Shown here: positions 26,597 through 51,017 of the stretch, in pieces
Numbering within the stretch: position 1 is the first letter of the stretch
Layout of the letters: each line of letters starts with the position of its first letter
Source of the DNA: Candidatus Latescibacterota bacterium
GTDB lineage: Bacteria > Latescibacterota > UBA2968 > UBA8231
Direction of reading: 5' to 3'
Assembly: GCA_965248355.1 (NCBI GenBank)
Contig: OZ252098.1
Span: 320,001-384,000, forward strand
DNA: 64,000 bases
Translations under genes and position numbers: made by a program
Notes under the pieces: generated by a model
What the model was told of the DNA's origin: nothing
Seen by the model: only the letters and a program-made list of their open reading frames with translations
Databases searched by the model: none

Positions 26597-26636
26597 CCGC
26601 TTCGAGAGATCCCCGAGGGAGCCGACCGCACGTCCC

Positions 26637-33676: not shown

Positions 33677-33744
33677 GTCTCCAATCGCATGATGAAAGGG
33701 TGGACGATCGGGGCCGAATACCTCGATCCTGAGAGGTTGCGTGT

Positions 33745-33773
33745 ATACTACCACGAAAACCCCGCAGAATCAA
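33745..33773 (-). promoter_or_regulatory. sigma70-type promoter TTGATT-N17-TAGTAT
   Basis: Same architecture as the promoter of copy 2. Confidence 0.65.
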
Positions 33774-33794
33774 CGCATTCCCTACTGAGGCAGC

Positions 33795-33828
33795 AAAAAG
33801 GGAGGCAGGCCGCGGGGGCCTGCCTCCC
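33795..33828 (-). terminator. Rho-independent terminator
   Basis: Same 12-bp stem as 32670-32700, followed by TTTTT. Confidence 0.85.
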
Positions 33829-33864
33829 CAAAAACCGTACCAGCGGCGCGGACCTGCAGCCGCT

Positions 33865-34803
33865 CTACTGCTGGAAGCTGGCCTTGACCTGGCCCCAGCT
33901 GTTGGACTCGACGGCGCTATCAAAATCTGGATCCACCGGCAGCAGGAGCCAGTCGCCGAGGACGTCGCTGTCAGCGTAATACCTCGCCGCACCGTCACCG
34001 CCCGACACCCAGACCGTATTGGGGCCGTCTTGGGCGGCCCCGTCGATGTCGCAAAGGGCGAGGGTCATGCCGATGATCTGGCCCTCCGAAAGGGGGGCGA
34101 CCACGCTCTCCTCGGGCGACAGGTGAACCAGGTTGTTGAAGTAGACGGTCCACCACTCGGAGATCAGCGTCACATCGGTGTCGCCGTGCCCACCGTCGAT
34201 GTCGAAGGCGGTGGGGCAGCAGGCATAGGGCTCCTTGTCGTGCCAGGTGGCGGCGCTCACCCACATCCAGCTCCAGGCGTTGTTCCCTTCTCCGATGGGC
34301 GGCCAGCGCCAGTGGGCGATCTGGGCCGACCTGGCTTGCGTCTCTTCGTCGCCGGTGACCATGACACCACCGGTGTGGTCGGCGTCGACATGGATCTCGA
34401 TGCTGTCGTCGCCGCCGCACTCGCCGGGCGGCTCCGCCACGTCGCGGTCGTACACGTCGTCGAAGCGCTCCTGGGCGAAGTACATGCGGTCGAACTCGTC
34501 GTTCCAGGCGACGGCGACGCGGATGGTGAGGTCGGAGGCGTCACCCTCGGGGCCGGACATGCCCTTGTCATTGCCATGGACGCCGGTGAACAGGGGGTTG
34601 CCGTCGTTGTCCAGGGTGGTGGACGGATCGAGCCACAGGTAATCGGGGATGACCTCCCACTCGCTGATGTCGCCGTCCAACTCGGGCAGGGCGTTCGAAG
34701 GCCACTGCCAAACTCCCAGGACGTTGCCCGGGGGCAGGTGGGCCTGCGCCGAGCCGAAGCCCAGCAGCAGAACCGCCATGGTGAGGGTTTTTCTCATGGT
34801 CAT
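33865..34803 (-). CDS. Secreted CBM9/DOMON-like protein with C-terminal AVExxSWGQVK tail (copy 2)
   Basis: Close paralog of 32738-33676 with long identical stretches. Confidence 0.8.
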   Translation of the reverse strand: MTMRKTLTMAVLLLGFGSAQAHLPPGNVLGVWQWPSNALPELDGDISEWEVIPDYLWLDPSTTLDNDGNPLFTGVHGNDKGMSGPEGDASDLTIRVAVAWNDEFDRMYFAQERFDDVYDRDVAEPPGECGGDDSIEIHVDADHTGGVMVTGDEETQARSAQIAHWRWPPIGEGNNAWSWMWVSAATWHDKEPYACCPTAFDIDGGHGDTDVTLISEWWTVYFNNLVHLSPEESVVAPLSEGQIIGMTLALCDIDGAAQDGPNTVWVSGGDGAARYYADSDVLGDWLLLPVDPDFDSAVESNSWGQVKASFQQ

Positions 34804-34884
34804 ATCTCCAATCGCATGATGGAAGGGTGAAGGTCGAGGGCGGGATACCCTCGGTCTTGAGCGTGCTTGACGGTCAACAGCCGA

Positions 34885-34913
34885 ATATTACGCAAGAGAA
34901 ACCGGAAAATCAA
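34885..34913 (-). promoter_or_regulatory. sigma70-type promoter TTGATT-N17-TAATAT
   Basis: -35 at 34913-34908 and -10 at 34890-34885. Confidence 0.65.
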
Positions 34914-34924
34914 CCACTTTGAGA

Positions 34925-37582
34925 TCAGTAGGACACGGCCAGGGTCCGCACTGCCTCGCGGCCCTCCAGGCGGCGCCCGCCGTCGTCGGTGTCGACCCGC
35001 AGGCGCACGAGGTAGATCCCCGGGGGCACGAGGAGCCCGTTGGCGTCGAGGCCGTCCCAGGCGATCTCGTAGAGGCCGGTGCCCGCGGACCCGTGCTCGA
35101 CGACCCGGCGAACGATCCGGCCGCCGAGGTCGTGGACCCGCAGCTCCACGGGACTGCCGTCGGCGACGCGGACGACGTTGAGCGAGAACAGGGCCTCGTC
35201 GTTGATCCCGTCGCCGTTGGGCGTGATGACCGGGGAGCTCAGGTCCACACCGGCAAGCAGGCTTCCGCCGGTGGCCTCGCCGATAAGGGTGATGGCTTCG
35301 CTGTCGACGCTGGCGAGGGCGTCGCCGGGATCGACCCGCTGCCAGGCGTCCTCACCGTCCCGGGTCCGCTTGACCGCGGCCTGCAGTTGGGCGCCGTTGG
35401 TGAACAGGGCGGTTCGGAAGTCGAGGCGCAACACCTCGATCCCACGGGGCTCCACGATGGGGAAGGAGAGGCGCAGGCTGTCGGGACCGGTCGGCATGAC
35501 CTCCAAGTCCTCCACCAGGGTACCGCCCCCGCCGTCGAACTCCTCGGCCGTCCCGGCGTAGAGCCCGGCGAATTCCAGGGACATGTCGGGGGGCGTCCTG
35601 AGCAGCAGTTCGTCGAAGCCCGGGTCCCGATTGTCGAACTCGGGCCGCAGGAAGAGGGAGAAGTCCCGCGGCACCCCCAGCGAGTCGACCCGGGTGGGGG
35701 TCACCTCCGCGAGGAGCCCCTGGGCGACGGGGTTGCTGAAGCGCAGCCGGAGGGAGCGAAGCGTAGGGTGCAGATCGGGGTCGTCCGAGACCAGGGTCGC
35801 GGCGATATTGAGGAACTCCCTCGGGGAGGGAGAGAGGAAGGGACTACCCGAGGCGTCCTCATAGGGCTGGCTCCAGCCGCTCCAGTCGTCTCCTTCTACC
35901 ATCTCGGCGACGATGGGGCCCTTCAAGGAGGGCAGCAGGGACGGATTGTTGTAGGCCTTCTCGCTGATCTCCGTGCCGTCGGCCTTGTAGTAGTGGAGGA
36001 CCTCCCGCAGCTCGTTGCCGGCGCGGGTCTGGATCGAGATCCTGGTCCCCGGCGGGGTGTCCGCCTCCCAGGACATGCTCAGAAGGTTGCGCCGGACTCC
36101 GAGCTCGACCAGGCCCGACTCCATGCGGACCTCGGCGATGTATCCGCGGCCGTAGAGGTAGATCTCCCCTGGCGCGGCGGTGTGAGGTTGCTCTTGGGTG
36201 AAGCCCAGATCGAAGACGAGGCGGAAGAACCGGGTCTTCACGAGGTCGAAGTCGTGAACCTCGAAGTCCTTGCGCATAAACTTCTGTATGCGGCGGGCCA
36301 CGGTCTTGAACTTCAGGGTACCGTCGGGGTTCAGGGATCCGTCGGAGGCCTCGAGATCGTAGGAGTTGAAGCTCCTTCTCTCGCGGTTCGTGACGCCGCC
36401 GTACATCAGCCGGTAGGCGTCGAGCCAGAAGGTGGCCCCCAGGTCGAAGAGGACGTACCCTTCGTTGCCCATGTTGACCTCGGTGAAGGAGCCCACGAGG
36501 CCGTCCACCAGCCTGCCGTAGTTCAGGTTCGCGTTGCCGCTGATTTGCCCGCCGCGCTTGTAGATGGCGGGCATGACGTTGTCCCCCTCGGTCCACACCT
36601 CGATGTCGGCCAGGCGGGGCCGCTCCTTGCGGTAGTGGAGGATCTCTCCCTGCTGTCCGGCGGGCAGACGCAGGTAGTCGGCCTCGCTCAACTCGGTGAG
36701 CCGGCCGTCCCGCTGCAGCTTGTGGTGGACGACGGCGCCCTTGTCGTCCTCGGGCAGGGCGGCGTAGGCCTCGGGGCTGACCAGCCGGCCGCGGTCGAAG
36801 TCGCTGTCGCGGACGACCACCATCACGTATCGCAGCGAGGCGCCCTTGAGCCCCCTGGGGGCCTGCACGCTTTGGTTACGGTCGACGGTGGATGGCGGCA
36901 GGATGGCGGCCAGCGGCGCCTCGCCGACGATGGAATCGGTGTATACGTCCTCGAAGGTGAGGTCCAGCACCCGGACGTCCTTGTTGGGCCTCAACGTTCG
37001 GTACACCGTCGCGAAGAACGGGTGTTTCGAAGCGGCGGCGGACGGCGGACGCTCGCCGTTGGAGACGAGGACGTCGAACTGAAGGAACGGGTCGCCCAGC
37101 TCCTCCTCCGCGAACCGGAGCACCAGCCTCTTGGCGATGACGTTCCGTCCCAGGTCGACCATGAGCCACCAGCGCGCGCCGAGCTCGACGGGTGGGGCGT
37201 CGGTCAGGTCGGGCTCCCAGTATGTCGTCGGGTCCCCGTCGAGGACGTTGACCACGTCACGGGGGTTGGAGCCGGCCTGCACGGCGTCGGCGAGGGTGAT
37301 ATCCTCGGGCTCCTTGTTCTTGAGGTGCGACGGGGGATGGAGGCGCAGGTAGCGGACGATCTCGGGGACGGCGTTGATGTCCTTGCGCAGGGCGAGGGGC
37401 CGCACCTCCCCCGAAGGGGAGAGCTCGACGGTCTCCTCGGGAAAGATCCAGTTCTGCCAGAGGCTGCGGCGGTCGACGACGAGCTCGTCGCCGGCGATCC
37501 GGTACGCCCGGCCCTGGGCCGTCAGGCCCGTGGCGGCAGCCAGGACCAGAAGGGCGGTGCGGAAGCTGATGATCCGTGTCAT
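34925..37582 (-). CDS. Secreted discoidin-like + FlgD-Ig C-terminal domain protein (paralog A3)
   Basis: Signal peptide, LDGDPTTYW, VDLG/FDLG, SPSPREF, TPNGDGIND and WDGLDANGLLVPPGIY. Confidence 0.8.
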   Translation of the reverse strand: MTRIISFRTALLVLAAATGLTAQGRAYRIAGDELVVDRRSLWQNWIFPEETVELSPSGEVRPLALRKDINAVPEIVRYLRLHPPSHLKNKEPEDITLADAVQAGSNPRDVVNVLDGDPTTYWEPDLTDAPPVELGARWWLMVDLGRNVIAKRLVLRFAEEELGDPFLQFDVLVSNGERPPSAAASKHPFFATVYRTLRPNKDVRVLDLTFEDVYTDSIVGEAPLAAILPPSTVDRNQSVQAPRGLKGASLRYVMVVVRDSDFDRGRLVSPEAYAALPEDDKGAVVHHKLQRDGRLTELSEADYLRLPAGQQGEILHYRKERPRLADIEVWTEGDNVMPAIYKRGGQISGNANLNYGRLVDGLVGSFTEVNMGNEGYVLFDLGATFWLDAYRLMYGGVTNRERRSFNSYDLEASDGSLNPDGTLKFKTVARRIQKFMRKDFEVHDFDLVKTRFFRLVFDLGFTQEQPHTAAPGEIYLYGRGYIAEVRMESGLVELGVRRNLLSMSWEADTPPGTRISIQTRAGNELREVLHYYKADGTEISEKAYNNPSLLPSLKGPIVAEMVEGDDWSGWSQPYEDASGSPFLSPSPREFLNIAATLVSDDPDLHPTLRSLRLRFSNPVAQGLLAEVTPTRVDSLGVPRDFSLFLRPEFDNRDPGFDELLLRTPPDMSLEFAGLYAGTAEEFDGGGGTLVEDLEVMPTGPDSLRLSFPIVEPRGIEVLRLDFRTALFTNGAQLQAAVKRTRDGEDAWQRVDPGDALASVDSEAITLIGEATGGSLLAGVDLSSPVITPNGDGINDEALFSLNVVRVADGSPVELRVHDLGGRIVRRVVEHGSAGTGLYEIAWDGLDANGLLVPPGIYLVRLRVDTDDGGRRLEGREAVRTLAVSY

Positions 37583-37615
37583 GTGCGGACCTCCTGTCAG
37601 CTATCTGGGCATCTA

Positions 37616-39535
37616 CTAGTAGACGAGGGAGACGACCCGTTCCTTGGACCTGATTCCGAGGTCCGACTCGACCTCGACCCGCAGGATGTAGATCCCCGGC
37701 CCGAGGAGGCGTCCCCCGCCGTCGCGGCCGTCCCACTCCGCGCGGAACCGGCCGCTGCCGGCCGGTCCGCGGAAGACCTCCTCCACGGGCGAGCCCCGCA
37801 GATCGTAGAGGACGACGGCCACCTCGGCGTCACCCTCCACGTTCACCAGTTCGTACTCGAGACTCACCCGGTCGTTGATGCCGTCTCCGTTGGGGCTGAA
37901 GACCGGCGGCTCGACGGTGAGGGCATTGACCGTCCGCCGGCCCACCTCCGCCAGGCCGACGCTCAGGGTGTTGCTGTCGACGATCGGGTCCGCCTCGCCG
38001 GGGGAGACCACCTGCGCCACCTCCTCCGGACGCTGGCTGTCCATGACCCGGCCGGAAAAGACGGTGCCGAACCGGAAGATCCGGGAGCGGAAGTCGATCT
38101 CGATGAGCTCGCCGTCGCGGCTCTCGTCGACCCGGGGGATGGCGAGCTCGAAGCCCGACTCGTCGAGGCGAAGAACCTCGTAGGCCACGGGCTGGCCGTT
38201 GAAGCGCACGCCGTCGATGCCGGCCACGGTGGTGGGCGTGTCGATGAGGATGCGGTCGAACCCGAAGTTCCCGGAGCGCATGACAGGCGTCATCAGGTAG
38301 GTGAAGGGCGTCACCTCGTCGACGGAGGCCATGGTCGGGGTGATCTCCCCGAAGACCACGGTGGCCGGCGGCGGCCGGGAGACGGCGAACTGCAGGTACT
38401 GGAGGCGGGAGCCGGCGTCGACGGTGGAGTTGAAATCGGCGCGCACCTGGAGGTACCGGCGGGGCCGTGAGGCCTGGAAAGGCACGGTCCCTTCGGAGTG
38501 TTCGAAGGACGTGCTCCAACCGTCCCAGTTCTCGGTGTCCGGCGTGATCCCGGCCCGTTCCCGCCTGTCCAGGCTCTCGTATCCGCCCTTTGTCAGGGGC
38601 TGGCCTTGCTCGTCCAACCGGCTGGTGGACCCACTGCCGCGGAAGGTGTAACGCCAGTAGTTGTTGGGACCCGGATCGTCCCCGGCCCGCATGCGCAACT
38701 TCAGATCGGCTCCGGGGTCGACCTCGGCGGACCAACTGAGGTCCCCCAGCGCGGAGGGGCCCCCGAGGTCGATGACCTGGCTCACGTAGGCGGCCTCGGG
38801 CGTGTAGCCCCGGCCGTAGACCTCGATCTCGGCCATCTCCCAGATGCCCTGCGTGTTCTCGGCCAGCGACACGAGCAGTTCCTTCACCGGGTACTCGGGC
38901 AGGGCGGTCAGCTCGATGTGCCCCCGGGAGTTCTCGACGTCCTCGTAGACGATCTCGAACTCCCAGTTGCGGGCGCGGATGACCGGGCCGCCCCTTCTGC
39001 TGCGTTCGGCGTCGTTGAACCCGATGCGAAACCACTGCACGAAGCGGCTCGACAGGTATCGCTCGCGCGGATACATCACGATCCGCGCGATGGTGAAGGT
39101 GCCCGGGAAATCGAAGACGAGTTCCAGGAAGGGGTAGTGGTGGGCTCCGCCCCAGTGGCCGTCCCCGAGAAGCACGGTCTCGGGATCGCCGTCAAAGAGG
39201 ACGTCGTCTGCCTTGAACCCGGCCACGAAGCCGTGCGTAGCGTAGTTGAAGATGCTCCCGCCGATCTCCTCGAAGATGGGGGCCAGGTTTACCGTCGGGT
39301 CCAGCTTGTCCGGCTCCAGGGCGTCGGGCTCGAGCCCGTGCAGCAGATCGATGGCGCCGTGGTCGCTGTCGGCGGCGGCCTGCCAGTCCAGTTGCACGAA
39401 GTCGGCCCCCTCCGGCAGCTCGGGCGGAGGCAGAGTCGAGCCCCCGATGCGGTAGATGGTCAGCCCCTGGGCGGCGGTGCCAAAGCCCAGCAGCAGGGTC
39501 AGGGCCTGCGCGATGGTACGTCTCGTCCTGGTCAT
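37616..39535 (-). CDS. Secreted discoidin-like + FlgD-Ig C-terminal domain protein (paralog A2)
   Basis: Signal peptide, FDGDPET, AEIEVYGRGY..YVSQVIDLG, PRRYLQ, SPNGDGIND and WDGRDGGG..GPGIY. Confidence 0.8.
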   Translation of the reverse strand: MTRTRRTIAQALTLLLGFGTAAQGLTIYRIGGSTLPPPELPEGADFVQLDWQAAADSDHGAIDLLHGLEPDALEPDKLDPTVNLAPIFEEIGGSIFNYATHGFVAGFKADDVLFDGDPETVLLGDGHWGGAHHYPFLELVFDFPGTFTIARIVMYPRERYLSSRFVQWFRIGFNDAERSRRGGPVIRARNWEFEIVYEDVENSRGHIELTALPEYPVKELLVSLAENTQGIWEMAEIEVYGRGYTPEAAYVSQVIDLGGPSALGDLSWSAEVDPGADLKLRMRAGDDPGPNNYWRYTFRGSGSTSRLDEQGQPLTKGGYESLDRRERAGITPDTENWDGWSTSFEHSEGTVPFQASRPRRYLQVRADFNSTVDAGSRLQYLQFAVSRPPPATVVFGEITPTMASVDEVTPFTYLMTPVMRSGNFGFDRILIDTPTTVAGIDGVRFNGQPVAYEVLRLDESGFELAIPRVDESRDGELIEIDFRSRIFRFGTVFSGRVMDSQRPEEVAQVVSPGEADPIVDSNTLSVGLAEVGRRTVNALTVEPPVFSPNGDGINDRVSLEYELVNVEGDAEVAVVLYDLRGSPVEEVFRGPAGSGRFRAEWDGRDGGGRLLGPGIYILRVEVESDLGIRSKERVVSLVY

Positions 39536-39545
39536 GATCCCCGTC

Positions 39546-42532
39546 CTAGAGACCCGCGTATACGGTGACGAAGGCCAGCCCCGCCGTGCGCTGCTCGAGG
39601 TCCGCCTCGACGACCTCCAGGGAACGCCGGTCGAATCGGAGTCCGACCTGGGTGGTGACGGCGTAGCTCTTCCAGGGCCTGCGATTGGCCAACTGAACGG
39701 CGTACACCACGCCGCGGAAGTCCCCGGTCAGGGTGCCGGGCGCAAGCTCCTCCTCGTCGGCCCGCAACTCGGCGAACTGGCGCCCCTCGATCCCGAACTC
39801 GAGGTGGGTCCGTGCCATGAAGGGCATGCGCACGAGCAGGGAGGCGATGCCGTCCCAGGATCGGCGCCGCCTCTCGTCCCGGGAGAAGGGCACCTCGTTG
39901 CGCCACTCGCTCTTGATCCGCGGCGACAGGGACAGCCGCCCCACCTGAAAGGCCAGGTCCGCCTTGCTGATGAAGCCGGTGAAGCCGGAGGTCTCCCGGC
40001 CGTTGCGGGCCTCGGGCCCGAGGGGGTCGAAGAGCACCACGGGCTCTCCTTCCTCGTCCAGCAGGGCGGCGCCCTCCTCGTCGACGGCGAAGGTGGGCTC
40101 CGCGTTCCGCTGCCGCCACCAGTCCCACTTGACCCGGTGCCGCGTCGACCAGCCCCGTGGGCTCGCGTAGCTCCAGTCGGCGGCCAAGCTGTTGATCCAG
40201 GTGTCCTGGGCCGCCAGGGGGTCGCGCCGGGGAATGCTGACGCCCACCGACTGGCCGGCGGCTCCGTAGTCGAGACTGGGCATCATCCACAGGTTGACGG
40301 GGTCGGGGATCGTGTCCCGGGCGAGCTTGACCATGTCGAAGAGCTGCAGCCGTCCCCATCCCGGATCGTCCCGCACCAGCTCGACGAGCCCGTACGGCGT
40401 GCGGTTGGAGCGGTCGGCGGTGCGCAGGTCCTGGCGCAGGTAGCCCGCCGTGAGCTCGAGGTCGGGGTTGACGCGAAGGGTGCCGTGGGCGTTGTAGCCC
40501 CAATGGCCCTTCTTGTAGGGATAGTCGGGGAGGTCGTCGTTCTCGAAGCGCTCGGCCACGCCGTTGTTGTCGAGATCGATGCCGAAGAGGAACTCCGGCC
40601 GGTCGCTGTTGTGGCGCAGGAAGGGCTCCTCGTAGTCGGGGAAGTAGTTGTCCTGGTCGCCGTTGCTGTTCTGGTTGAAATCGGAGATGAGGTCCCCGTT
40701 CTCGTCGTAGCCTGGGAAGACGGCCGGGTCGGCGACACCCACCGGGGTTTCCAAATGGCCCCTGACCGACGTCCCGCGAGGCCGGATGAGTCCACCGTGG
40801 AACTTCCGAGCCTGGTCGGGGTGCCGGTCCTGGTCGTCGTTGTCGTCGACGAAGTCGTAGATCCCCTCGGTCGCCTCCGGCGAGTAATCGATTACGGGGG
40901 TGTCGACCGGCTTGATGCTCGTGGAGTAGGCGTCGTCCATGCCGAAGCCCTCGACGAAGAGCCGCCACGGTCCGGCCTTCTTCGACAGGTTGACCTGGAA
41001 GCCGAGGGCGTGCTCGTCGCCGACGATGCCCGAGAAGCTGTCGTGCTTCTCGAGAAGCGTGCTGGGATACTGGCGGACACTCGTGCTCAGATTGAACTCG
41101 CCGTAGAAGTCGAAGCCCGCCAGGTCGCGGATCTCCGCGGTCAGGCCGGCGACCTGTGTCGCCGTGGGCAGGCCGTAGTCGAAGACGACCTCCTCCGGGT
41201 TCAACTGGTTCTTGACGTTGCCCGTCGACCGCGCCACCTCGAGGAACTGGGGGACGTCGTGGCGGTCGATCTGGCGGTCGGAGGCGACCTCGATGGCGTA
41301 GTCGTTGGCCAGGCGCAGGCGGAAGCGCACGTTCCTGACCCGGGTGACGGCCTCGTCCGCTTCGTCCAGCTTGAGATCGAGGGCCCTCTGCAGCAGCAGC
41401 CTGAAAGTCCGGCGGCCTCGGATTCCCCCTCTTCCGGGGCCAGGGTGTAGTACATGGTAATGCTGTGCTGACCGTCGGCCCGTCGGAAACCGTCCCGTAC
41501 CTCTCCGCCCTCGATGGTGGGGTAGAAGCCGATGCCCCGGCCGCTGATCGTGGTGTCCCGGAGGACGCGCTGGGTCCCGCCCTCGACGTCGACGTCGTGC
41601 CACAGGGAGGTGGTGATCTCGATGTCGGAGTCGAAGAGGATGGGCCCGCCCTCGCCATCCTCGGGCGAGTCGTCCCGCAGCCGCACGAGGAGCAGGTTCA
41701 CGCGGCTGCTCAGTTGTCTTGTGGTCAGGGCCCCTCTGAAGGGATTGCCCTGGAAGGAGTCGCGGATGCCTGCCGCGTTGTGGGCGTTGACGAAGGTGGC
41801 CCCGAGGGTCAGGAAGTCGGTGACGTCCGCCTCGAGACGCCCGGCCATCAGGTTGGTGTAGTTGCTCTGGGGGACGGAGGCGATGCCTCCGAAGATCCGC
41901 ACCACCGGGTCGGAGGGGCGGGCGAAGAGCCCCGTGGCGCGCAGGCGGTTGGACGCGAAGTCCGTCATGACGCCGCTGAAGCCGGCCTTGCGGAACGTCA
42001 TCGGCGTCAGGCTCGCGAAGATCTCGTCGCCCACGGTCAGGGAGTAGCTGTTGTCGCCTGTCGCGTCGGAGGAGATGATGAGGCGGTCGAACCATCCGTC
42101 GTAGCGCCCGAGCTTGGTGATTCTGCTGCTGTCAAGGGTCCGGGCCTGGGTCTGGCGCCAGTCGTAGACCAGCCACCCCCGGGTAACGAGGTTGCCGTAG
42201 TAGTCGTAGAAATACTCGCCCTCCTGGGCCTGACTCACGTACGGCAGGTAGGGCTGGCGGGCGTAATTCGTGTACGACCACTGGCGCCGGCCGTACTCCC
42301 GGAAGAGCTCCTGCGGCAGGTACCACCGCTTGATCGTCGGGTCGAGGGTCTTCATGAGCACCCTCGGCCCGGTGACGCTGTACTGGGAGGGGCCCCGCTC
42401 CTGCTCCCCGAGCCGGTGGCCGTAGTCGAGCTGGGCGCCCGCCGCGACCGAGGTGCCGGCCAGGAGGAGGAGGACGAGGAAACCCCTGCCGGAGTCGTTT
42501 TGCCGGATTCCATCCATGGCGTGCATCCTCAT
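39546..42532 (-). pseudogene. Large exported Asp-rich putative outer-membrane protein (paralog B2), frameshifted near 41409
   Basis: ORFs 41201-42532 and 39546-42095 match the N- and C-halves of 44194-47007 colinearly. A single missing base at GCC GGA CT explains the frame change. Confidence 0.75.
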
Positions 42533-44193
42533 CCCTCGATCCTCCGAAGCCGATCCTCGAAGACCTGCACCGGATACTCCTCGCGCAGACCGCGGACATA
42601 CTCCGTGTACCCGCGGTTGGCCTTGCCGATGCGCACGTAGGCCCTGGCGCGGCGCTCCGATTCCTCGTTGTAGGGATCCTTGTAGGCCTCCCGCTCCAGC
42701 ACCTTGAAGACCGAATGCCCCATGGCTACCTCGAAGGGGCCTCCGACGCCGCCGACCTCCACCTCCTGAACCTTCTCGGCCAGGACGGGGAAGAAGCTCT
42801 GGGTGAAGACGCTGACGTTGAGCCGGCCGTCGTGATGGGCGGCCCCCGGGCGCAGGGTATGCTCCGCCGCCAGCGCCTCGGCGTCGGCGCCCTCCTCCAG
42901 CTCCCGCCGGAGGCGCATGGCCATGGTGTCGGAGGCGACGACGATCTCGACGATGGCCGTGTACTCCGGCCGGGTGAACTGGTCCGGGTTCTCGTCGTAG
43001 AACCGACGGGCCTCTTCGTCGGAGGCGCGGACGTGACTGGTCACCTCGCGGCGCCGCAGGGCGGTGACGAGCAACTCCTGCCGCTTGAGGTCCACGGCCT
43101 TCTGGAAGCCGGCGTCCTCCCGCAGCCCGGAGGCCTCGATCTCGGCCTCGATGAACAGCTCGGAGAGGATCCGGTCGCGCAGCAGTTGCGCGATGGCGAG
43201 GCTGTCCGCCTCTCTGACTTCCTTCACCTTTGCCCGGCGCGCCATCTCGAAGAAGCCTCCCACCGTGACCTCGCGGTCGCCGTAGGTGGCGATCACCTCC
43301 CCCGCTTCCGAGTCGCTCAGGTCGGGGCCGGTCTCTGCGGCCTCGGAGATCCGCTCCGCCAGGAGGCGCACCGTCGGCCCGCGCACCTGGACGGGGTAGA
43401 CGGACCGCAGGGAGTCGAGGTACTCCAGCATGCGCTCGTCACGCTTGCGCAGGGCCACCTCCTCGACGACGATCGCCTCGGAAGCGCTCAGGGGGGAGGG
43501 CACCTCGTCGAGAACCATGTAGATCACGTGGAACCGGCCCTCGCGGCCCAGGGTCTCGCGCAAGGGCTCGGTGAAGGCTCCCACCTCGAGGTCGGCGGCA
43601 GCCGTGCTGGCCTCCGGGGGCATCAGGTCCCGGACGAGATAGGTGCCGAAGTCTCCCCCTTTCGGGGCCGTTGGCTCGTGGACCGAGTGTTTTCTCGCCA
43701 GGGCCTTGAAGTCGGCTCCAGCCTTCAGGAGGGCGTGAATCGAGTCCGCCGCGGCCGGCTCATGCAGCATGATGGCGCCCAGCCGCAGGGCCCGGTGGCG
43801 CCCGGTGGCGCGATGGTGCGCCTCCACCTCTTCCGGGGTGATCGTCACCCGGCGGGCGATGTACTCGTGAAAGTGCAGCTTGCGCAGGTACCTGTGCTCG
43901 AACTGCTCCAGGTCGGCCTGCACCTCGGGATCCGAGTCGACCCCGGTGTCCAACGCGGCCCTCAGCAGCAGCTCCCTGTCTACCAGGCTCTCCAAGAGCT
44001 GGCGGTCCCTCTCGTAGGGCGTCTCCCCTTCCTTCATGCCGTCCGGGATGGGCTCGGCGAAGGAGCGGAACTCGGAGAGGGTGATCGGATCTCCGGCGAC
44101 GGTGGCCAGGACGGGCTCATCCGGATCGGAACCGCACCCGGCCAAGGAGATGACAAGGGCCAACCCGGCCGCCGGTACGAGCGGGCGCATCAT
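42529..44193 (-). CDS. Lipoprotein peptidyl-prolyl isomerase (SurA/PrsA-like, two parvulin domains)
   Basis: Lipobox LAGC; GADFKALARKHS..GGDFG and GADAEALAAEHT..GHSVFKV. Confidence 0.85.
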   Translation of the reverse strand: MMRPLVPAAGLALVISLAGCGSDPDEPVLATVAGDPITLSEFRSFAEPIPDGMKEGETPYERDRQLLESLVDRELLLRAALDTGVDSDPEVQADLEQFEHRYLRKLHFHEYIARRVTITPEEVEAHHRATGRHRALRLGAIMLHEPAAADSIHALLKAGADFKALARKHSVHEPTAPKGGDFGTYLVRDLMPPEASTAAADLEVGAFTEPLRETLGREGRFHVIYMVLDEVPSPLSASEAIVVEEVALRKRDERMLEYLDSLRSVYPVQVRGPTVRLLAERISEAAETGPDLSDSEAGEVIATYGDREVTVGGFFEMARRAKVKEVREADSLAIAQLLRDRILSELFIEAEIEASGLREDAGFQKAVDLKRQELLVTALRRREVTSHVRASDEEARRFYDENPDQFTRPEYTAIVEIVVASDTMAMRLRRELEEGADAEALAAEHTLRPGAAHHDGRLNVSVFTQSFFPVLAEKVQEVEVGGVGGPFEVAMGHSVFKVLEREAYKDPYNEESERRARAYVRIGKANRGYTEYVRGLREEYPVQVFEDRLRRIEG

Positions 44194-47007
44194 CTACTCG
44201 AGTCCCGCGAAGACGGTGATGAAGGTCGTCGTCTGGGTGCTCCCCCGGTTCTCGAGGATGAAGGAGCCCGGGCGATCGTCCTCCTCGACGACCTGCTCGG
44301 TGAGAATGCGCCCCAGGCGCAAGCCGACCTGGGTCGTGAGCTTGTAGCCGAGGTAGTCGGAGGTCGTCGACAGCTGGAAGGCGACGTTGGTCGAGCGCCA
44401 GTCGCCCGTCTCTCGCTGCAACGCCTCGGCGAGAAGGGCATCCTCGTCCTGCGCCAGGTCGCCGAACCAGAGCTGCTCCAGGCCGGCTTCGATGACGGTG
44501 TGGCGCATGACGGGCAGGCGTCCGATGAGTTGCAGGGTGAAGGTCCAGTCCTCCCGCCGCGGTTCCACCTGGGCGAAGGCCTGGCGTCTCAAGTACTCGT
44601 TCTTGATCCGCGGCTGCAGGTCGAACCGTCCCAGGCCGAGGGTGTAGTCGGCCTTGTTGATGAGACCGAAGAGGTCGGTGTCGCTCCGCAGGCGCCGGCC
44701 GTCGTTGTCGCGCGGGCCCTCCTTGTTCTGCCGGTAGGTCTCCCACTTCAGCTTGTGCACCATCCGGAACCGGGGGACGCCTTCGAAGGTGAGCTCGGCG
44801 TAGGCCGAGTTCACCCAGGTGTCCTGGGCGGGCAGGATGTCCCGCACCAGGGGCTGGATGGTGAGCGCCAGGACATGGGGGGTGGGCTCCCGGCGGTCGT
44901 CGGGGATCGTGTCACGGGCCAGCTTGAGCATGTCGAAGAGGCGCAGACGGCCGAGGCCCGCCTGCTGCCAATCGACGGTGAAGAGGGCGTAGTTCGTCTG
45001 GTTCGCCGCGTCGGAGGAAGGCGACTTCTCGTCGGTGCGGCCCAGGGAGAGCCGCGCCCACGGGGTCAGGTGGTAGCCGCCAAAGGCGTTGTAGCCCTGC
45101 CGGTCGGGCTTGTAGGGATAGTCGGGCAAGTCGTCGTCCTCGAACCGGTCGATCCAGTCGTTGTTGTTCAGATCGATGCCGAAGAGGAACTCCGGACGAT
45201 CGACGCGATAGCGGAGGAAGGGTTCGTCGTAGTCGGGGATGATGTTGTTCGCGGAGGCGTTGTCGTTCTGGTTGAAGTCGGAGATGAAGTCGTTGTTCTG
45301 ATCCCACCCCGGGTAGATGGCCCGGTCCCTGGACGCGTCGAAACGGATCCAGTCCGGATAGCTGTCCTGGTCGTCGTTGTCCTCGACGAACTCGTAGAGA
45401 TACTGCTGGGTGTCGTCGTAGACGGTGTTGCCATCGTTGTTGACCAAGTAGGCCGTGGTCGAGTAGGCGCCGTCGATGGAGTAGGCCTCGCCGAAGGCGA
45501 ACCAGGGATACTCTTCCCGCGACAGGTTGACGTACCAGGCGTCGGACGACTCCGACGCGATCTTGTGCTGCTCCCGCAGATTGAAGAGCTCGGCGTTGGG
45601 ATACTGGGAGTAGCGCTTGTTGCGGTCCCACTCCCCGTAGAAGTCGAGGCCGAAGAGACCGGTCCCCTCGATGGTGAAGCCGCCCACGAAATTGGCCGTG
45701 GGCAGTCCGTAGTCGAAGCGGATGCGCCGCAGGTTCGTCAGGTCGGCGACGTTGCCCTCGGCCCGGCGCAGGGTGAGGAGGGCGGGCCGGGCCTCGTCGA
45801 TGACCTCCGAGGTGAGCGGCGCCCGAGGAATGCCCCGGCGGGCGCTCTGCCGGTCGGACCACAACTCGATCTTGTAGTCGTTGGCCAGGACGTAGTCGAA
45901 CTCGATCCTGACGATCGTCGTCGGATCGACTCCCGCGGGCGGGGCGAAGGCCGGGTCGTTGAAGTCGTAGTTGAGGATGATGCGCTCCTCGCCGTCGGCG
46001 GCGAGGAAGCCGGAGCCCGGGGCGCCACCGAAGACGATGGGCCACTGGCTGCCGGGGCGCACCACGTCGCTCAGGGTATAGACCGTCTCGGCCCCCGTGT
46101 CGAAGTTCCGCGCCGTGATGCGCACGTCGTGGCTGAAGAGGGCGGCGCCTCCCCTGCCGTCCTCGGGCGAGTCGTCGCTCAGCACGACGGCGATCGCCGT
46201 GAGGGGGGCGGTGCTCTGCCCCGAGGTCAGGTTGCCGGCCACCGGGTCGCCGTCGAACATGTCGAGGACGGTGTTGCCGTTGGTGGCGTTCACCACGGTG
46301 GCGCCCAGGAGGATGAAGTCGCCCACCTGGAAGGTGGCGCGGCCTCCGAAGAGGGAGGTGAGGTTCGTCCGCCGGGTCGGCGCGGTGACGCCCGCCAGGC
46401 CCTGGGAGGAGCCCCTGATCGGTTCGCTGATGCGCGACGACAGGACCGTGGCATGGTACTTGTCGGAGGAGAAGTCGATCTGCACGCCGTTGAATCCGGG
46501 CTTGGAGAAGGTCATCGGCGTCAGGGTGGTGCGGATGCGGTCTCCCACGGTGATGGCGTAGGAGTACTGCCCCTGGGAGTCGCCGCTGATGGTGACCGCG
46601 TTGAACCAGGAGTTGAAGCGGTTCGCCTGGAAGATGCCGCTGCCCTCGGACTGGGGCTGGAACTGCCGCCAGTCGTAGATGAGCCAGCCGTGGGTGGTGA
46701 AGTTGCCGTAGACGTCGTAGAAGTAGTCGCCTTCCCGGTTCGTTCCCACGTAGCGCTGGTAGGGCTCCCGGGCGTAGTTGGTGTACTCCCACTGCCGCCA
46801 GCCATAATAGTTGAAGAGCTCCTGCGGGATGTACCACTTCCTGATCGAAGGATCGAGGGCCCCGAAGAGCACCCCGGAGCCCTGGGGCGCGAAGCTCACC
46901 TCGCCCCCGCGCTGGAGGCCGAGCCGCGTTCCGTAGTCCTGCTGGCCGAGCACCGGGGCGCCGGAAAGCAGCGCGGCGGTGACGGCGAGAAGCCTGATTG
47001 CCCTCAA
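44194..47007 (-). CDS. Large exported Asp-rich putative outer-membrane protein (paralog B1)
   Basis: TTG start with AGGAGGAG, signal peptide, aromatic N-terminus, DNDDQD/DQNND/DLNNND motifs and amphipathic beta-strand C-terminus ending FITVFAGLE. Confidence 0.8.
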   Translation of the reverse strand: MRAIRLLAVTAALLSGAPVLGQQDYGTRLGLQRGGEVSFAPQGSGVLFGALDPSIRKWYIPQELFNYYGWRQWEYTNYAREPYQRYVGTNREGDYFYDVYGNFTTHGWLIYDWRQFQPQSEGSGIFQANRFNSWFNAVTISGDSQGQYSYAITVGDRIRTTLTPMTFSKPGFNGVQIDFSSDKYHATVLSSRISEPIRGSSQGLAGVTAPTRRTNLTSLFGGRATFQVGDFILLGATVVNATNGNTVLDMFDGDPVAGNLTSGQSTAPLTAIAVVLSDDSPEDGRGGAALFSHDVRITARNFDTGAETVYTLSDVVRPGSQWPIVFGGAPGSGFLAADGEERIILNYDFNDPAFAPPAGVDPTTIVRIEFDYVLANDYKIELWSDRQSARRGIPRAPLTSEVIDEARPALLTLRRAEGNVADLTNLRRIRFDYGLPTANFVGGFTIEGTGLFGLDFYGEWDRNKRYSQYPNAELFNLREQHKIASESSDAWYVNLSREEYPWFAFGEAYSIDGAYSTTAYLVNNDGNTVYDDTQQYLYEFVEDNDDQDSYPDWIRFDASRDRAIYPGWDQNNDFISDFNQNDNASANNIIPDYDEPFLRYRVDRPEFLFGIDLNNNDWIDRFEDDDLPDYPYKPDRQGYNAFGGYHLTPWARLSLGRTDEKSPSSDAANQTNYALFTVDWQQAGLGRLRLFDMLKLARDTIPDDRREPTPHVLALTIQPLVRDILPAQDTWVNSAYAELTFEGVPRFRMVHKLKWETYRQNKEGPRDNDGRRLRSDTDLFGLINKADYTLGLGRFDLQPRIKNEYLRRQAFAQVEPRREDWTFTLQLIGRLPVMRHTVIEAGLEQLWFGDLAQDEDALLAEALQRETGDWRSTNVAFQLSTTSDYLGYKLTTQVGLRLGRILTEQVVEEDDRPGSFILENRGSTQTTTFITVFAGLE

Positions 47008-47018
47008 GCTCGCTCCTC

Positions 47019-49199
47019 CTAGTAGGTCACGGCGACGGTGCCGAAGGCCCGCGCCTGTCCCGTCTTCGCGTCAACCGTCACGCTGAAGACATAGTTTCCC
47101 GGCGGCACGATCCGGCCGGAGTCATCGCGGCCGTCCCAGGGGAGGGCGAAGCGTCCGCTCACGTCGTCCCCGGCGTACAGGCGGCGGACCGGCCGGCCGG
47201 ACAGGTCGCGAAGGACGACCTCCACCCGCCTCGGCGCGCCGATGGTGGTCAGGTCGTAGCCGATCGAGGTCTCCTCGTTGGCCCCGTCTCCGTTGGGCGT
47301 GATCACCGCCGGCGCGGCCTTCACGTTGACGAGGAGGTCGTCGGTGATCCCCACGTGCACGGCCAGGTTGCCCGCCACCTGCGAGCCCAGCGGGAGGGTG
47401 TCCCCATCGCCCTCTCCCAGATCGGCGGCGTTGCCGGGGAGAAGGTGCTGTCCCACCAGGGCGCCGGTCTCCGAGTTCAGGGCCTGGCCGGAGAAGGTCG
47501 TGCCGAAGCGGAGCACGGCGTTGTCGAAGGTGACGCGCAACTCGGCCCCGTCCTCGGCCACGGCCGGGAACCCCACGGTGAAGGACTTCTCCTCCACCTC
47601 GAGGATGGAGAAGTCTCCCCGGGCCACGGGCAGGTCCGAGTCCGACAGGGCGCTGCCGGTGAAGTCCGCCGACTGCACGCTGCCGTCGGCCCGCCGGATC
47701 TCCACCGATCCGACCTCCTCCACGCGCAAGGGCGTCCGGATCTTCAACCGGTCAAAACCCCGGTCGCGGCCCGGCTCGAAGAGGGTGCGGACCGCGTAGG
47801 TGAACCAGGTCTTCTCGGCGAGTTCCGTCCTTCGCGGCCGGATTTCCCCGACGAGGGCCCCGGAGAAGGGCCGGGTGAGCACGTCGAAGGCGAGTCCGCC
47901 GACGCCGGTGGCCGATTCGAACTCATCGCTGAGGAATTCGATCGATACCTGGAAGTACCGCCGCGGACTGGGGGAGACGATCGGGACGCCGAGCCCTTCC
48001 ACCTCGAGCCCGTCGGCCGTGACCACGGCCTCGGGAGGATAGACCGCCGACCACTCGCTCCAGCCGGTCACGTCGTTGCGGATCTCGCCCTTGTCCTTCC
48101 GGGCCAGGGCGCCGTAGTCATCCTCGGTCAGGCTGAGCTCTTCGCGCTGTTCGAGGGACAACTCCTCGAAGGTCTGGCTGGCGTCGCGGAGGTCGACGTC
48201 GATGTTGTCCAGGACGTTCTCGACGAGCGCCTTGAGCTCGGCGTCGTCGACCTTGTCGGCGAACTTCCAGGGCACATGGGATTCTCGCGGGGAGAACTGG
48301 CCGGAGATGCGGAAGATGTCCTCGGCGGGGCGGATCTTGCTGAAGATCAGGGGCTGGGGGTCGATCCCCGAGCGGGTGCGCACCCTGATCCGTGAGAAGG
48401 TCTCGTCTCCCACCTTCTCCTGGACCCAGCGGAGGTTGCCGAGCAGGGTCGCCGCGCCGAAGTCGATGATGTTGGAGATGTAGGCCGCCTCGGGGACGAA
48501 ACCGGTCCCGAAGACCTGCAACTCGGCCAGGTCGAATCCGACCGCGGTGAGCGACTTGAGGCGGACGAGCCGGACGTACTGCGCCGGGATGCGGATGTCG
48601 ACCACCGGTTCCTCGTTCTGCCCCTCCACGGCCACGCTCGTCCGGATCGGTCTTCCCTGGCTCGTCGACTCGGGTGTGCCGTCGTTGAGGAAGAGCTCGA
48701 AGCTTCGGAGGAAGTCGTTCTGGAAGGGGAAGTCGGCGGCCGGCATCTCCGGAGCGGCGTTGCGGGGGAAGAAGCGGAAGCGATTGACGCCGAAGCGGGC
48801 GCCGAGGTCCAGGTCGACGATCAGGCCCAGGACCGGGGTCTGGCGGAGATCCAGCCCCGTCTCGCCGTTGTTGTCGATGATCCTGGTGAGATCGTTGCGG
48901 ATGGCCCGGTGGGTGGGAGTGGTGATCTCGCCGCCGCGCTCGAGGGTACCGACCGCGATGTTCAGCTCCGGGTCGGCGCGCTGGGGGAAGATCCAGTTGT
49001 CGTGGCCCTCGACCGAGAAGTCGATGACGCCGCCCGGGGTGTTCGTGGACTTCACGGACTCGCCGCGGATCACCTTCGCCTGGATCCCGCCTCCGCCCTC
49101 CTCCCAGGGACTCCCGGGGCCTCCCAGAATGACGACCTCGGCGGAGGCTGCCGTGGTGAGGACGAGGACGGCGCTGGCGAAGAGGGCGGGACGTCTCAT
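47019..49199 (-). CDS. Secreted discoidin-like + FlgD-Ig C-terminal domain protein (paralog A1)
   Basis: ATG at 49199 and signal peptide; LDLGARFGVNRFRFFPR, AELQVFGTGF, SPSPRRYFQ, TPNGDGANE and WDGRDDSG..PPGNY. Confidence 0.8.
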   Translation of the reverse strand: MRRPALFASAVLVLTTAASAEVVILGGPGSPWEEGGGGIQAKVIRGESVKSTNTPGGVIDFSVEGHDNWIFPQRADPELNIAVGTLERGGEITTPTHRAIRNDLTRIIDNNGETGLDLRQTPVLGLIVDLDLGARFGVNRFRFFPRNAAPEMPAADFPFQNDFLRSFELFLNDGTPESTSQGRPIRTSVAVEGQNEEPVVDIRIPAQYVRLVRLKSLTAVGFDLAELQVFGTGFVPEAAYISNIIDFGAATLLGNLRWVQEKVGDETFSRIRVRTRSGIDPQPLIFSKIRPAEDIFRISGQFSPRESHVPWKFADKVDDAELKALVENVLDNIDVDLRDASQTFEELSLEQREELSLTEDDYGALARKDKGEIRNDVTGWSEWSAVYPPEAVVTADGLEVEGLGVPIVSPSPRRYFQVSIEFLSDEFESATGVGGLAFDVLTRPFSGALVGEIRPRRTELAEKTWFTYAVRTLFEPGRDRGFDRLKIRTPLRVEEVGSVEIRRADGSVQSADFTGSALSDSDLPVARGDFSILEVEEKSFTVGFPAVAEDGAELRVTFDNAVLRFGTTFSGQALNSETGALVGQHLLPGNAADLGEGDGDTLPLGSQVAGNLAVHVGITDDLLVNVKAAPAVITPNGDGANEETSIGYDLTTIGAPRRVEVVLRDLSGRPVRRLYAGDDVSGRFALPWDGRDDSGRIVPPGNYVFSVTVDAKTGQARAFGTVAVTY

Positions 49200-49385: not shown

Positions 49386-51017
49386 ATGCCCCTTCGGACC
49401 CCGGACCGACACCTGCCTGTGATCAGAGGAGGACATCGCCCCCAGTTCGGCGGGCCCTCAAGACGGGGCATCCCGAGGTTCCTTGCGGCCCTCCTGTGCC
49501 TCTGTCTGACCCCGTGGCCGGTCCCGGGTGCCGGCGAGACGACGGCCCCCCCGCCGGCCGAGACGGCTCCCAGGCGGCTGTCCGCGACCCACCTCCTGGC
49601 GGAGATGGGTCGCGACTCGGACGCCCCCATCCGGCTCCGTCACGCAGTGGTCAGGGGCTCCCTCGACGGGGCGTCGGCCGGGCTCGACACCGTGCGCCGC
49701 CCCCTCGACCTGGAGGACGTGCGCTTCACGGGGGAGGTCTCCCTGCCGCGCGTCGTTTTCCTGGCTCCGGTGCGGGTCCATGGATCGGCCTTCGAAGGGG
49801 GGCTGTCCCTCCAGGGGGCGAGCTTCCACGGACCCGCCGGCTTCCAGGCCATCCGCGTCGACCGGCAGGCCAACCTCAGAGGGGCGGCCTTCCTCGCCGG
49901 GGCCGACTTCAGCGATGGCGAGTTCTTGGGGGTCGGCTCCTTCATCGAGACCCGTTTTGAGGGCGGGGAAAGCACCTTCCGCCGGACCCGGTTCCGCGGC
50001 GGCGCCTACTTCGAGGGCGCCCGGTTCGGCACCTCCGCGGACTTCCGCAGCTCGGTCTTCGGCGACGTCGCCTCCTTCAAGGAGACGGAGTGGTCGGATG
50101 TCTCCTTCGCCGGGGCCCGCTTCTGGGGCCGCATCCTCTTCTGGGAGTCCGTCTTCGCCGGGACCGCCCGCTTCGACAAGGCCCGCGCCGAGCGACAGGT
50201 CTCCTTCGACCGCGCCCGCTTCGACGGCCCCGCCTCCTTCGAGGAGTTCATCTTCGCTGACCCCGCGGTCTTCACCGGGGTCAGGGCCCGGGAGGAGATC
50301 GGCTTCGCCGGCGCCTACTTCCGCAAGGACGCGGACTTCCGCGGCGGCACCTTCTCCGGGGAGCTGAACCTCGCCGGGAGGATCCAGAAGGGGCTGGACC
50401 TGCGGCGGATCCGAAGCTCGACGGTCACCCTTCTGGCGACGGATCCTGCCCAGGTCACCTTCGGCGACAGCGCCACCCTCTACTTGCAGGAAGCGCGCTG
50501 GGATGAGTTGCGCTTCCGCTGGCCCGAGTTGCGCGGCCGGCTGGCGGCGGCCGACCCGGGGTCGATCGACGACCTCGAGCCGGTCTATGCCGACCTGGGG
50601 GCCCAGTTGCGCCGCCAGGGCCGGTTCCGCGACGCCGAGGCCTGCCACGTCGAGTGGATGGACCTGCGCCGCCGGCAGTTCGGCTGGACAGACCCGGCGC
50701 GCTGGGGCCTGGAGCTGTTCGGCCTGAGCACCCGCTACGGCACCGACCCCGGCCGCTTCGCCGGCGCCGCGGTCTCCGCCGTCCTCCTCTTCGGCCTTCT
50801 GTATCGCCTCGGACGAGGCGGACTGGTGCCGGTCACCGGCGGCGCAGAGGCCTCCCTGCTCGACTGCCTTCTCTTCAGCTTGCAGACCTTCGTGCGCGCC
50901 GGCCAATCCTCCTGGCGCCCCACCGGCGCGCTCCGCTTCCTCGCCAACCTCCAGGCCCTGCTGGGATGGATCGGCCTGGCTCTGCTGGTGGTGACCCTGC
51001 TGTCGCCTCTCCGGTAG
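49386..51017 (+). CDS. Pentapeptide-repeat protein with C-terminal two-TM ion-channel-like module
   Basis: Many AxFxxxxF repeats, YGT motif, then TM-pore helix (CLLFSLQTF)-TM (QALLGWIGLALLV). Start is uncertain. Confidence 0.75.
   Translation: MPLRTPDRHLPVIRGGHRPQFGGPSRRGIPRFLAALLCLCLTPWPVPGAGETTAPPPAETAPRRLSATHLLAEMGRDSDAPIRLRHAVVRGSLDGASAGLDTVRRPLDLEDVRFTGEVSLPRVVFLAPVRVHGSAFEGGLSLQGASFHGPAGFQAIRVDRQANLRGAAFLAGADFSDGEFLGVGSFIETRFEGGESTFRRTRFRGGAYFEGARFGTSADFRSSVFGDVASFKETEWSDVSFAGARFWGRILFWESVFAGTARFDKARAERQVSFDRARFDGPASFEEFIFADPAVFTGVRAREEIGFAGAYFRKDADFRGGTFSGELNLAGRIQKGLDLRRIRSSTVTLLATDPAQVTFGDSATLYLQEARWDELRFRWPELRGRLAAADPGSIDDLEPVYADLGAQLRRQGRFRDAEACHVEWMDLRRRQFGWTDPARWGLELFGLSTRYGTDPGRFAGAAVSAVLLFGLLYRLGRGGLVPVTGGAEASLLDCLLFSLQTFVRAGQSSWRPTGALRFLANLQALLGWIGLALLVVTLLSPLR

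Follow-up and report, generated by a model that had tools for sequence, protein, structure and literature searches.

A conserved, multi-copy Latescibacterota envelope cassette that pairs lectin-type proteins with very large predicted outer-membrane beta-barrels of an undescribed family

What do six tightly packed genes for exported proteins, found at positions 34,925 to 49,199 of a 64,000-nucleotide stretch of a Candidatus Latescibacterota genome (contig OZ252098.1, positions 320,001 to 384,000; hereafter the window), contribute to the envelope of this bacterium? A first-pass annotation, made from the DNA letters alone, had taken them for a candidate undescribed cell-surface or secretion system, in which three secreted proteins with similar tails (A1, A2 and A3) accompany two putative barrel paralogs (B1 and B2) and a dedicated foldase of the peptidyl-prolyl isomerase type (PPIase). 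Following up on this proposal, we find that these genes represent one copy of an envelope cassette that is conserved in Latescibacterota and present several times in the genome. Structural models indicate that both B proteins are outer-membrane beta-barrels of very large size, forming a new, undescribed family, and that the A proteins are lectin-type multi-domain proteins, putatively sugar-binding, whose tail is like that of type IX secretion system (T9SS) cargo but distinct from it. By analogy with known systems, the cassette probably builds a cell-surface binding platform. The genes in question, all on the minus strand, are the following (aa, amino acids).

47019–49199, minus strand: A1, a secreted protein of 726 aa with a CBM32/discoidin-fold domain, beta-sandwich domains and an Ig-like tail.
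44194–47007, minus strand: B1, a protein of 937 aa with a TTG start and a signal peptide; predicted outer-membrane beta-barrel.
42529–44193, minus strand: PPIase, a lipoprotein of 554 aa with two parvulin domains.
39546–42532, minus strand: B2, a paralog of B1, about 995 aa when read as one frame; broken in the window.
37616–39535, minus strand: A2, a secreted protein of 639 aa, paralogous to A1 and A3 by phmmer, with a variant tail that ends in SLVY.
34925–37582, minus strand: A3, a secreted protein of 885 aa with an N-terminal discoidin/NedA-like domain and a variant tail that ends in AVSY.
33865–34803, minus strand: D1, a secreted CBM9-like protein of 312 aa.
32738–33676, minus strand: D2, a tandem duplicate of D1, its start set by homology to D1 (the longest possible start is a GTG at 33754).

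The order A1-B1-PPIase-B2-A2-A3, the shared strand and all five intergenic gaps (11, 0, –4, 10 and 33 nucleotides (nt), respectively) were reproduced as originally described. Specifically, the PPIase start directly abuts the B1 stop, while the PPIase stop overlaps the B2 start by 4 nt. The proposed extent of the cassette was borne out in part, in that the six genes stand as a unit but the operon does not end with A3, the tandem genes D1 and D2 continuing the cassette. Inspected by eye, all eight N-termini (A1–A3, B1, B2, PPIase, D1 and D2) are signal-peptide-like, and those of the six core proteins show a basic start followed by a hydrophobic stretch, which together with an LAGC lipobox in the PPIase agrees with the export signals that had been assigned to all six. 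No cysteine occurs in any of the A or B proteins. The source genome consists of a single contig of 5.50 Mb with 68.9% G+C, and close relatives of the proteins are labelled as Latescibacterota, or as Gemmatimonadetes in some older records.

B1 was modelled with AlphaFold2 from a 60-sequence alignment, with a predicted local distance difference test score (pLDDT) of 81.5 and a predicted template-modelling score (pTM) of 0.79. The model displays long antiparallel strands from residue ~94 to residue 937, roughly 24–26 of them as counted from the model's strands, together with a beta-rich internal insert at ~246–426 and an Asp/Asn-rich loop region at ~518–635 that is modelled without secondary structure. 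Within this loop region, Asp/Asn-rich motifs at ~541–635 are invariant across the family. The N-terminal residues 16–70 are modelled with a pLDDT below 50, yet an alignment of 12 B sequences showed them to be conserved among close homologs. When the model was compared with the PDB using Foldseek, all 74 matches listed at E ≤ 1e-3 were outer-membrane barrels or the like, and the barrels matched by Foldseek or VIA-align include SlpA, LptD, MtrB, FimD, FhaC and porins. The top Foldseek match was the Deinococcus SlpA barrel (E 1.3e-8, although with a template-modelling score (TM) of only 0.27), and the longest stretches aligned by VIA were to SDBC/SlpA (435 residues), SprA (428), MtrB (427) and LptD (350); the sugar channels maltoporin, CymA and chitoporin also appear in the VIA list, as generic barrel matches. 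With a TM of 0.13–0.30 and a Z-score of at most 13.9, the likeness of B1 to known barrels is that of one barrel to another in general. B1 is thus modelled as an outer-membrane barrel and not as a soluble protein, in line with what had been suspected from the sequence.

The suspicion that the B proteins fall outside characterised families also withstood a wider search. Pfam and NCBIfam returned nothing for B1 or for either half of B2 at E ≤ 0.1, Pfam detected no usher, POTRA or two-partner domains in B, and a profile of the B family searched against the sequences of the PDB gave a single match at chance level (E 0.031). An Atlas search with B1 yielded unnamed clusters, the nearest named one being DUF6029 (score 0.89), which we take as a lead only. 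No longer, fused forms of B turned up in the search, which is weak evidence. The family is nevertheless populous, with no fewer than 909 homologs when clustered at 90% and 717 representatives when clustered at 50% identity. The predicted paralogy within the cassette was confirmed by aligning B1 with the intact B2 ortholog of locus L018, the two being colinear over their full length with 40% identity.

Three known identities for B were tried and rejected. The PorP/SprF model TIGR03519 (2 candidates scored) had no match anywhere in the genome at E ≤ 0.001, control genomes being likewise unmatched. The PorV model NF033710 detected five PorV-like genes in the genome, none of which lies in a B locus. 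Finally, a TonB-dependent transporter of the SusC type was discarded on finding no Plug domain in B, the 18 Plug matches of the genome all lying off the B coordinates.

The AlphaFold2 model of A1, built from 29 orthologs, reached a pLDDT of 88.7 and a pTM of 0.78. Residues ~76–235 of this model superpose on CBM32 (Z 15.6, root-mean-square deviation (rmsd) 2.1, 123 aligned residues), beta-sandwich domains follow one another in the middle part, where a helical insert lies at ~320–364, and the tail (residues 619–726) superposes on the C-terminal domain of PorU from Porphyromonas gingivalis (6za2_B; Z 12.2, rmsd 2.5, 99 aligned residues with 21% identity). The model depicts A1, a Sec-exported protein, as a string of beta-sandwich domains with a CBM32 lectin fold at its start and, at its end, an Ig-like domain resembling a T9SS C-terminal domain; its sequence ends in VAVTY. 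The discoidin-like region originally claimed for all three A proteins was recovered in A1, through this CBM32 fold, and in A3, which matches PF22633 at 28.4 bits (cut-off 27.8); A2 has no discoidin match in Pfam and is tied to the family by its phmmer similarity to A1 and A3. Similarly, the tails of A1 (36.7 bits) and A3 (30.3 bits) exceed the 27-bit cut-off of FlgD_ig (PF13860), and that of A2 (24.5 bits) falls just below it.

All three A proteins do carry the tail motif that had been read from their sequences, namely [ST]PNGDGxN[DE]...WDG...PGxY followed by a final V/L-x-Y, with SPNGDGINDR as the version in A2. The PNGDGxND motif is typical of type-B T9SS tails. A hidden Markov model (HMM) was built from the A tails and searched against the open reading frames (ORFs) of the genome, in which it found 117 ORFs with such a C-terminal domain, 29 of them A-like and 88 others. 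The A-like tails end in Tyr in 28 cases and in Phe in one, and 23 of the 29 contain [STA]PNGDG, the six without it being the A genes of a second kind of locus described below. Among the 88 other tails none has the PNGDG motif, and the final residue is Arg (52), Lys (23), His (6), Glu (4) or, once each, Asp, Ser or Gln. Moreover, 28 of the 29 A-like ORFs are located no more than 13 kb from a B gene. The genome therefore holds two sharply separated classes of tail, of which the Tyr/Phe class is almost confined to the neighbourhood of B genes. The sole A-like ORF outside the B loci is a near-identical full-length copy of A2 (G000:C1:694432-697017; phmmer 1365 bits), the tail of which differs in a few residues and the nearest B gene of which is 131 kb away.

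The PPIase scored well above the Pfam cut-offs for Rotamase_2 (PF13145, 67 bits versus 27) and Rotamase (PF00639, 61.9 bits versus 21.7), with the matches falling in two stretches that correspond to two parvulin domains. Its N-terminal region is weakly SurA-like (SurA_N_3, 19.6 bits, below the cut-off of 27.2). In these respects it resembles the SurA, PrsA and PpiD parvulins; unlike those, it is a lipoprotein, it is multi-copy with one copy per cassette, and it stays below every NCBIfam equivalog cut-off. The genome has seven PPIase paralogs, six of which are located in B loci, one for each cassette of the window's kind. As for the D proteins, D1 matches CBM9_1 (PF06452) at 18 bits, below the cut-off of 23.4, and in its nearest Atlas clusters CBM9_1 is found in 13%, 37% and 94% of the members, so that D1 and D2 can be described from sequence as CBM9-like secreted proteins, a conserved class of the cassette. 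D1 and D2 are closely similar (phmmer E 2e-177) with near-identical N-termini, and the duplication (32738-34887) takes in the upstream leader, the two leaders being alike up to a shared MTMRK start.

Turning to the rest of the genome, a B profile identified 26 full-length B genes (B2 counted), one split copy and one fragment. These genes form 13 loci, that of the window being one, and A-like genes adjoin B in all 13. Loci of the first kind, to which the window belongs, have all three A genes (A1–A3) together with a PPIase gene, one B gene or two, and in most cases D. In loci of the second kind, three B genes in tandem are accompanied by a single A-like gene and by a gene for a protein whose tail is ordinary, and there is no PPIase. 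The latter are exemplified by L110–L114 (genome positions 150-170, 494-514, 548-568, 1575-1595 and 1953-1973 kb), where the ordinary tail is of the FlgD_ig type and the A-like gene lacks PNGDG, yet still ends in Tyr. In all three second-kind loci that were scanned downstream, a TPR (YfiO-like) protein of 1085-1317 aa comes next, and DUF4159 proteins occur in two. In the split copy (L121; G000:C1:2469301-2473411), the B paralog is interrupted by an inserted Mutator-family transposase gene (PF00872, E 5e-36).

Synteny of A, B and PPIase genes, which the first-pass annotation had left to be looked for, extends well beyond this genome. We collected 79 foreign loci from approximately 44 other assemblies (as counted by accession prefix, some assemblies contributing several), and in 68 of these an A1-like gene lies directly upstream of B. 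Gene classes were counted in the 60 foreign loci of at least 20 kb: an A1-like gene was present in all 60, an A2-like gene in 59 and an A3-like gene in 44, while PPIase, D and two or more B genes were each present in 54, and 48 of the 60 had all classes together. The order of the genes varies by group, whereas their membership is constant. Across the phylum, the B profile matched 106 of 168 genomes, including all 75 other genomes of the window's family and none of the 56 in families f2–f4. The A1 core, used as a single-sequence query, matched 82 of the 168 and again none of the 56 in f2–f4, and it misses f10, which has B. Publications on the Latescibacteria outer membrane and secretion, on T9SS in Gemmatimonadota and on FlgD Ig-like tails, supplementary files aside, gave no description of such a cassette, nor was one found in the parts of PMC4454575 and PMC12993501 that were consulted. 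As far as this literature goes, the cassette is undescribed, and the closest known system is type-B T9SS cargo with PorP/SprF.

Whether this comparison can be carried further depends on the T9SS parts of the genome, for which the first-pass annotation had suggested a check. Part of the expected set is present, namely one SprA_N match (105.9 bits, in a frame of 2067 aa), two PorU genes (556.9 and 543.8 bits, with an NCBIfam cut-off of 420) and PorV-like genes, the best of five scoring 157.8 bits and lying directly after one of the PorU genes, outside the B loci. PorP/SprF and GldM had no match in the genome, and GldK had partial matches only. Full-length PorU was found in all five sampled B-positive genomes and in none of the five B-negative ones; PorU was nonetheless dropped as a correlate of B, the two samples being also two clades. 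In the five B-negative genomes (G037, G040, G042, G053 and G056, of families f2 and f3), where SprA is present and full-length PorU was not found, the PorU model matched only a protein of ~1950 aa, at model positions ~260-745. The window's genome likewise has such a partial-PorU gene, at 3467396-3468898.

How, then, might the cassette work? The reading that we prefer, tentatively and by analogy, takes the A lectins for cargo of the T9SS type that is retained on B barrels of their own, as type-B cargo is held on PorP/SprF; we consider it possible rather than probable. The A proteins would fold in the periplasm, possibly aided by the dedicated PPIase, and would cross the outer membrane via the genome's T9SS (the SprA, PorU and PorV homologs). 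They would then escape handling as bulk cargo, the variant tail holding each A protein non-covalently on its own B barrel. Several lectin-type domains would thereby be displayed on a platform anchored by the barrels, where they could adhere to glycans or capture them, and the many diverged copies could provide different specificities.

Two papers describe type-B cargo as binding a cognate PorP/SprF barrel whose gene is often adjacent (PMC9143113, PMC12618676). In the systems covered there, SprB-SprF of Flavobacterium johnsoniae and PG1035-PorP-PorE of Porphyromonas gingivalis, the cargo gene adjoins its own barrel gene, several cognate pairs exist per genome and the Ig-like tail of the cargo is distinct from the bulk type-A tails. 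The cassette is alike in each respect, A1 lying 11 nt from B1, with a barrel of another family; the PNGDGxND-like tail motif of the A proteins and the SprA, PorU and PorV homologs of this genome add to the likeness. Unlike the type-B systems, the cassette has a barrel of ~940 aa and roughly 24–26 strands that matches neither PorP/SprF nor PorV, A tails that end in Tyr/Phe and reach neither the CHU_C nor the TIGR04131 cut-off, and three cargo paralogs along with a CBM9-like protein and a PPIase, and its host stands outside Bacteroidota. A complex prediction of B1 (residues 86–937) with the A1 tail (residues 612–726), run with separate alignments, gave ipSAE values of 0.00 and 0.00, below the mark of 0.32, a result that speaks neither for nor against a contact.

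A number of findings weigh against holding the A proteins to be T9SS-type cargo on private barrels. B is unrelated to PorP/SprF or PorV, and its barrel is far larger than an anchor requires, a size that suits a channel or a translocon equally well. All A tails fall short of the 27-bit CHU_C cut-off (A1 15.4, A2 21.1 and A3 14.5 bits), A2 reaches 14.3 bits with the type-B tail model TIGR04131 (cut-off 35), and A2 and A3 reach 14 and 12.7 bits, respectively, with the type-A tail models TIGR04183/PF18962 (cut-off 23). The motor genes of the T9SS were not recovered beyond the partial GldK matches mentioned above. SprA_N was found in four of the five sampled B-positive genomes and in all five B-negative ones, and therefore the presence of a T9SS does not track the cassette. 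Furthermore, two other genera of the same family have at least 49 and at least 41 B genes in one genome each, and when 20 kb around each of 18 of their B loci was examined, 13 proved to be without any tail-bearing, A, PPIase or D gene, while in the remaining five the neighbouring tail ends in Lys. Upstream of 20 B genes in genomes G099 and G107, a tail ending in Tyr was seen once, one ending in Lys three times and none 16 times. With 13 of 18 loci devoid of A partners, the barrel family is therefore independent of A. Finally, a scan of ~30 flanking proteins encountered no obvious glycan-degrading enzyme domain, one of them having a GDSL-like lipase/acylhydrolase domain.

Channel and translocon roles stay open because of the barrel size, the huge expansion and these solitary copies elsewhere. 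It seems rather unlikely, in our estimation, that the cassette is a capture-and-import complex, Sus-like without TonB, in which B would be a channel for oligosaccharides or other large solutes, A and D would feed it and different cassettes would match different substrates. The B family is strongly expanded, here and in the two other genera, in the manner of substrate-specific transporters, each cassette offers several carbohydrate-binding-type domains (CBM32, CBM9-like), B genes that stand alone in other genera suit a channel that works without A, and maltoporin, CymA and chitoporin are among the fold matches, though generic ones. SusC/SusD loci, too, come as many diverged cassettes that combine a big outer-membrane barrel with surface proteins of the carbohydrate-binding type. 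However, B has neither a Plug domain (the 18 Plug-domain genes of the genome lie elsewhere) nor a TonB-dependent receptor signature, the A proteins have ordinary signal peptides in place of lipoboxes, and no SusD-like protein accompanies them. Among the ~30 scanned neighbours, the lack of any obvious glycan-degrading enzyme domain counts against import as well, and neither a Plug domain nor a sensor-regulator or inner-membrane sugar transporter was seen there. The aromatic-ending class of A tails would also be left unexplained. An export-and-display machine that does without T9SS, with B translocating its own A lectins or being assembled around them and the PPIase acting as periplasmic chaperone, strikes us as distinctly unlikely. 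B would then conduct or thread its A chains through the outer membrane as an usher does, or be assembled with them in the manner of LptD-LptE and MtrB-MtrA, and the aromatic residue at the end of the A tail would serve as something like a barrel-assembly signal. In sponge-associated Latescibacterota, such a family would have diversified until single genomes had dozens of copies. In size the barrel compares with FimD, LptD and MtrB, all among the fold matches, and such a machine would accommodate A proteins that are strings of small beta-sandwich domains, A tails that end in Tyr/Phe and are sharply unlike the 88 bulk T9SS-like tails, the one PPIase paralog per first-kind cassette and the undetected T9SS motor genes. 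The likeness of B to LptD-LptE, MtrB-MtrA, the FimD usher and SprA lies in size class and in the longest aligned stretches, but the structural similarity to such partner-filled barrels is generic (TM 0.13–0.30, Z 9.8–12.4), there is no sequence relation, and B has neither an usher plug nor POTRA or two-partner domains by Pfam. The fold match of the A1 tail to the T9SS C-terminal domain of PorU (Z 12.2), the existence of SprA, PorU and PorV homologs in the genome and the triple-B cassettes without a PPIase argue against this machine as well. On this evidence, the original heading of a secretion system is not favoured over a T9SS-dependent anchor or a capture complex.

We hold it to be highly improbable that the cassette forms a structural lattice, in which B, through Asp-rich loops of the calcium-binding type, would anchor a protein coat of A and D on the surface, much as SlpA anchors the S-layer in Deinococcus, with glycan binding secondary. 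The invariant Asp/Asn-rich motifs of B and the SlpA barrel as best Foldseek match would fit a lattice, as would FG-GAP/ASPIC and PMT_2-TPR neighbours that recur at three loci each; but the match to SlpA is of the generic kind seen among barrels, SLH and coiled-coil parts are absent from B, and thirteen diverged cassettes in one genome are ill-suited to a single coat. Barely credible, lastly, is the absence of any functional link, with B as a general porin family and its adjacency to A as inherited gene order. B genes are indeed solitary in two other genera, but the A-B adjacency survives rearranged gene orders in the 79 loci from ~44 assemblies, the special tail class is restricted to B neighbourhoods, and the coding regions abut or overlap.

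Whichever of these readings holds, the cassettes likely decide what these symbionts bind on their surface. The B family, with its 717 clusters at 50% identity and up to ~50 genes per genome, has no annotation and no solved relative, yet it is predicted to occupy the outer membrane in a phylum that is both widespread and uncultured and that was recovered here from libraries labelled as sponge. Should the A tails dock on B, the logic of one private barrel per cargo would exist outside Bacteroidota with a different and much larger barrel, and the split between Tyr-ending and Arg/Lys-ending tails would, if true, be a sequence rule that directs cargo to one route or the other. A role of B as a channel or a translocon would instead make it a new class of either.

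The interrupted reading frame of B2 requires separate comment. In the window, 2 extra bases at ~41411-41412 divide the gene over two overlapping frames, a point on which the earlier description of B2 has to be corrected; the paralogy and length given there hold. L018 and L019, which served as reference for B2 at 93% nucleotide identity, both have it as one frame of 995 aa. Contigs from sequencing run X3 differ from the window at 0-3 positions per piece, the B2 break site excepted. At that site, contigs amounting to 26.8 of a depth of 48.7 lack the 2 bases, and those amounting to the other 21.9 of 48.7 have a third base in addition to the 2; each version keeps the frame. The version with the 2 bases plus 1 more is also seen in a contig from an RNA library. 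Because the short-read contigs carry in-frame versions only, the break is likely an artefact, most likely a consensus error of the assembly at a site that is polymorphic, B2 itself being probably intact. A further in-frame length polymorphism of 3 bases occurs at 40888-40890 of B2, where L018 and L019 have 3 bases more; the same 3 extra bases are present in contigs of X3 (19.5 of a depth of 52.8), X15 and X16.

Part of the B2 stretch was found in 20 sequencing runs from 11 studies, several of them labelled as sponge metagenome or metatranscriptome. In two RNA libraries of one study, contigs cover parts of all six genes, which is a weak hint of cassette expression, DNA carry-over being possible and contigs being silent on level, transcript ends and strand.

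With regard to the surroundings of the cassettes, FG-GAP/ASPIC-UnbV repeat proteins are located beside three B loci (window 51040-52686, plus strand; L116:13206-14927; L120:14098-16266). PMT_2 glycosyltransferase-like membrane proteins with TPR are located near three as well (window 24764-26734, minus strand; L117:12501-14885; L119:2969-5101), and this recurrence hints, at the level of sequence, at a glycosylation linked to the cassette. TPR proteins also recur among the flanking proteins of B loci. In the window itself, D2 is followed downstream by a FAD oxidoreductase and a metallophosphoesterase, and at 49386-51017 on the plus strand lies a divergent gene for a protein of 543 aa with pentapeptide repeats (PF13576, E 4e-26) and a hydrophobic C-terminal part.

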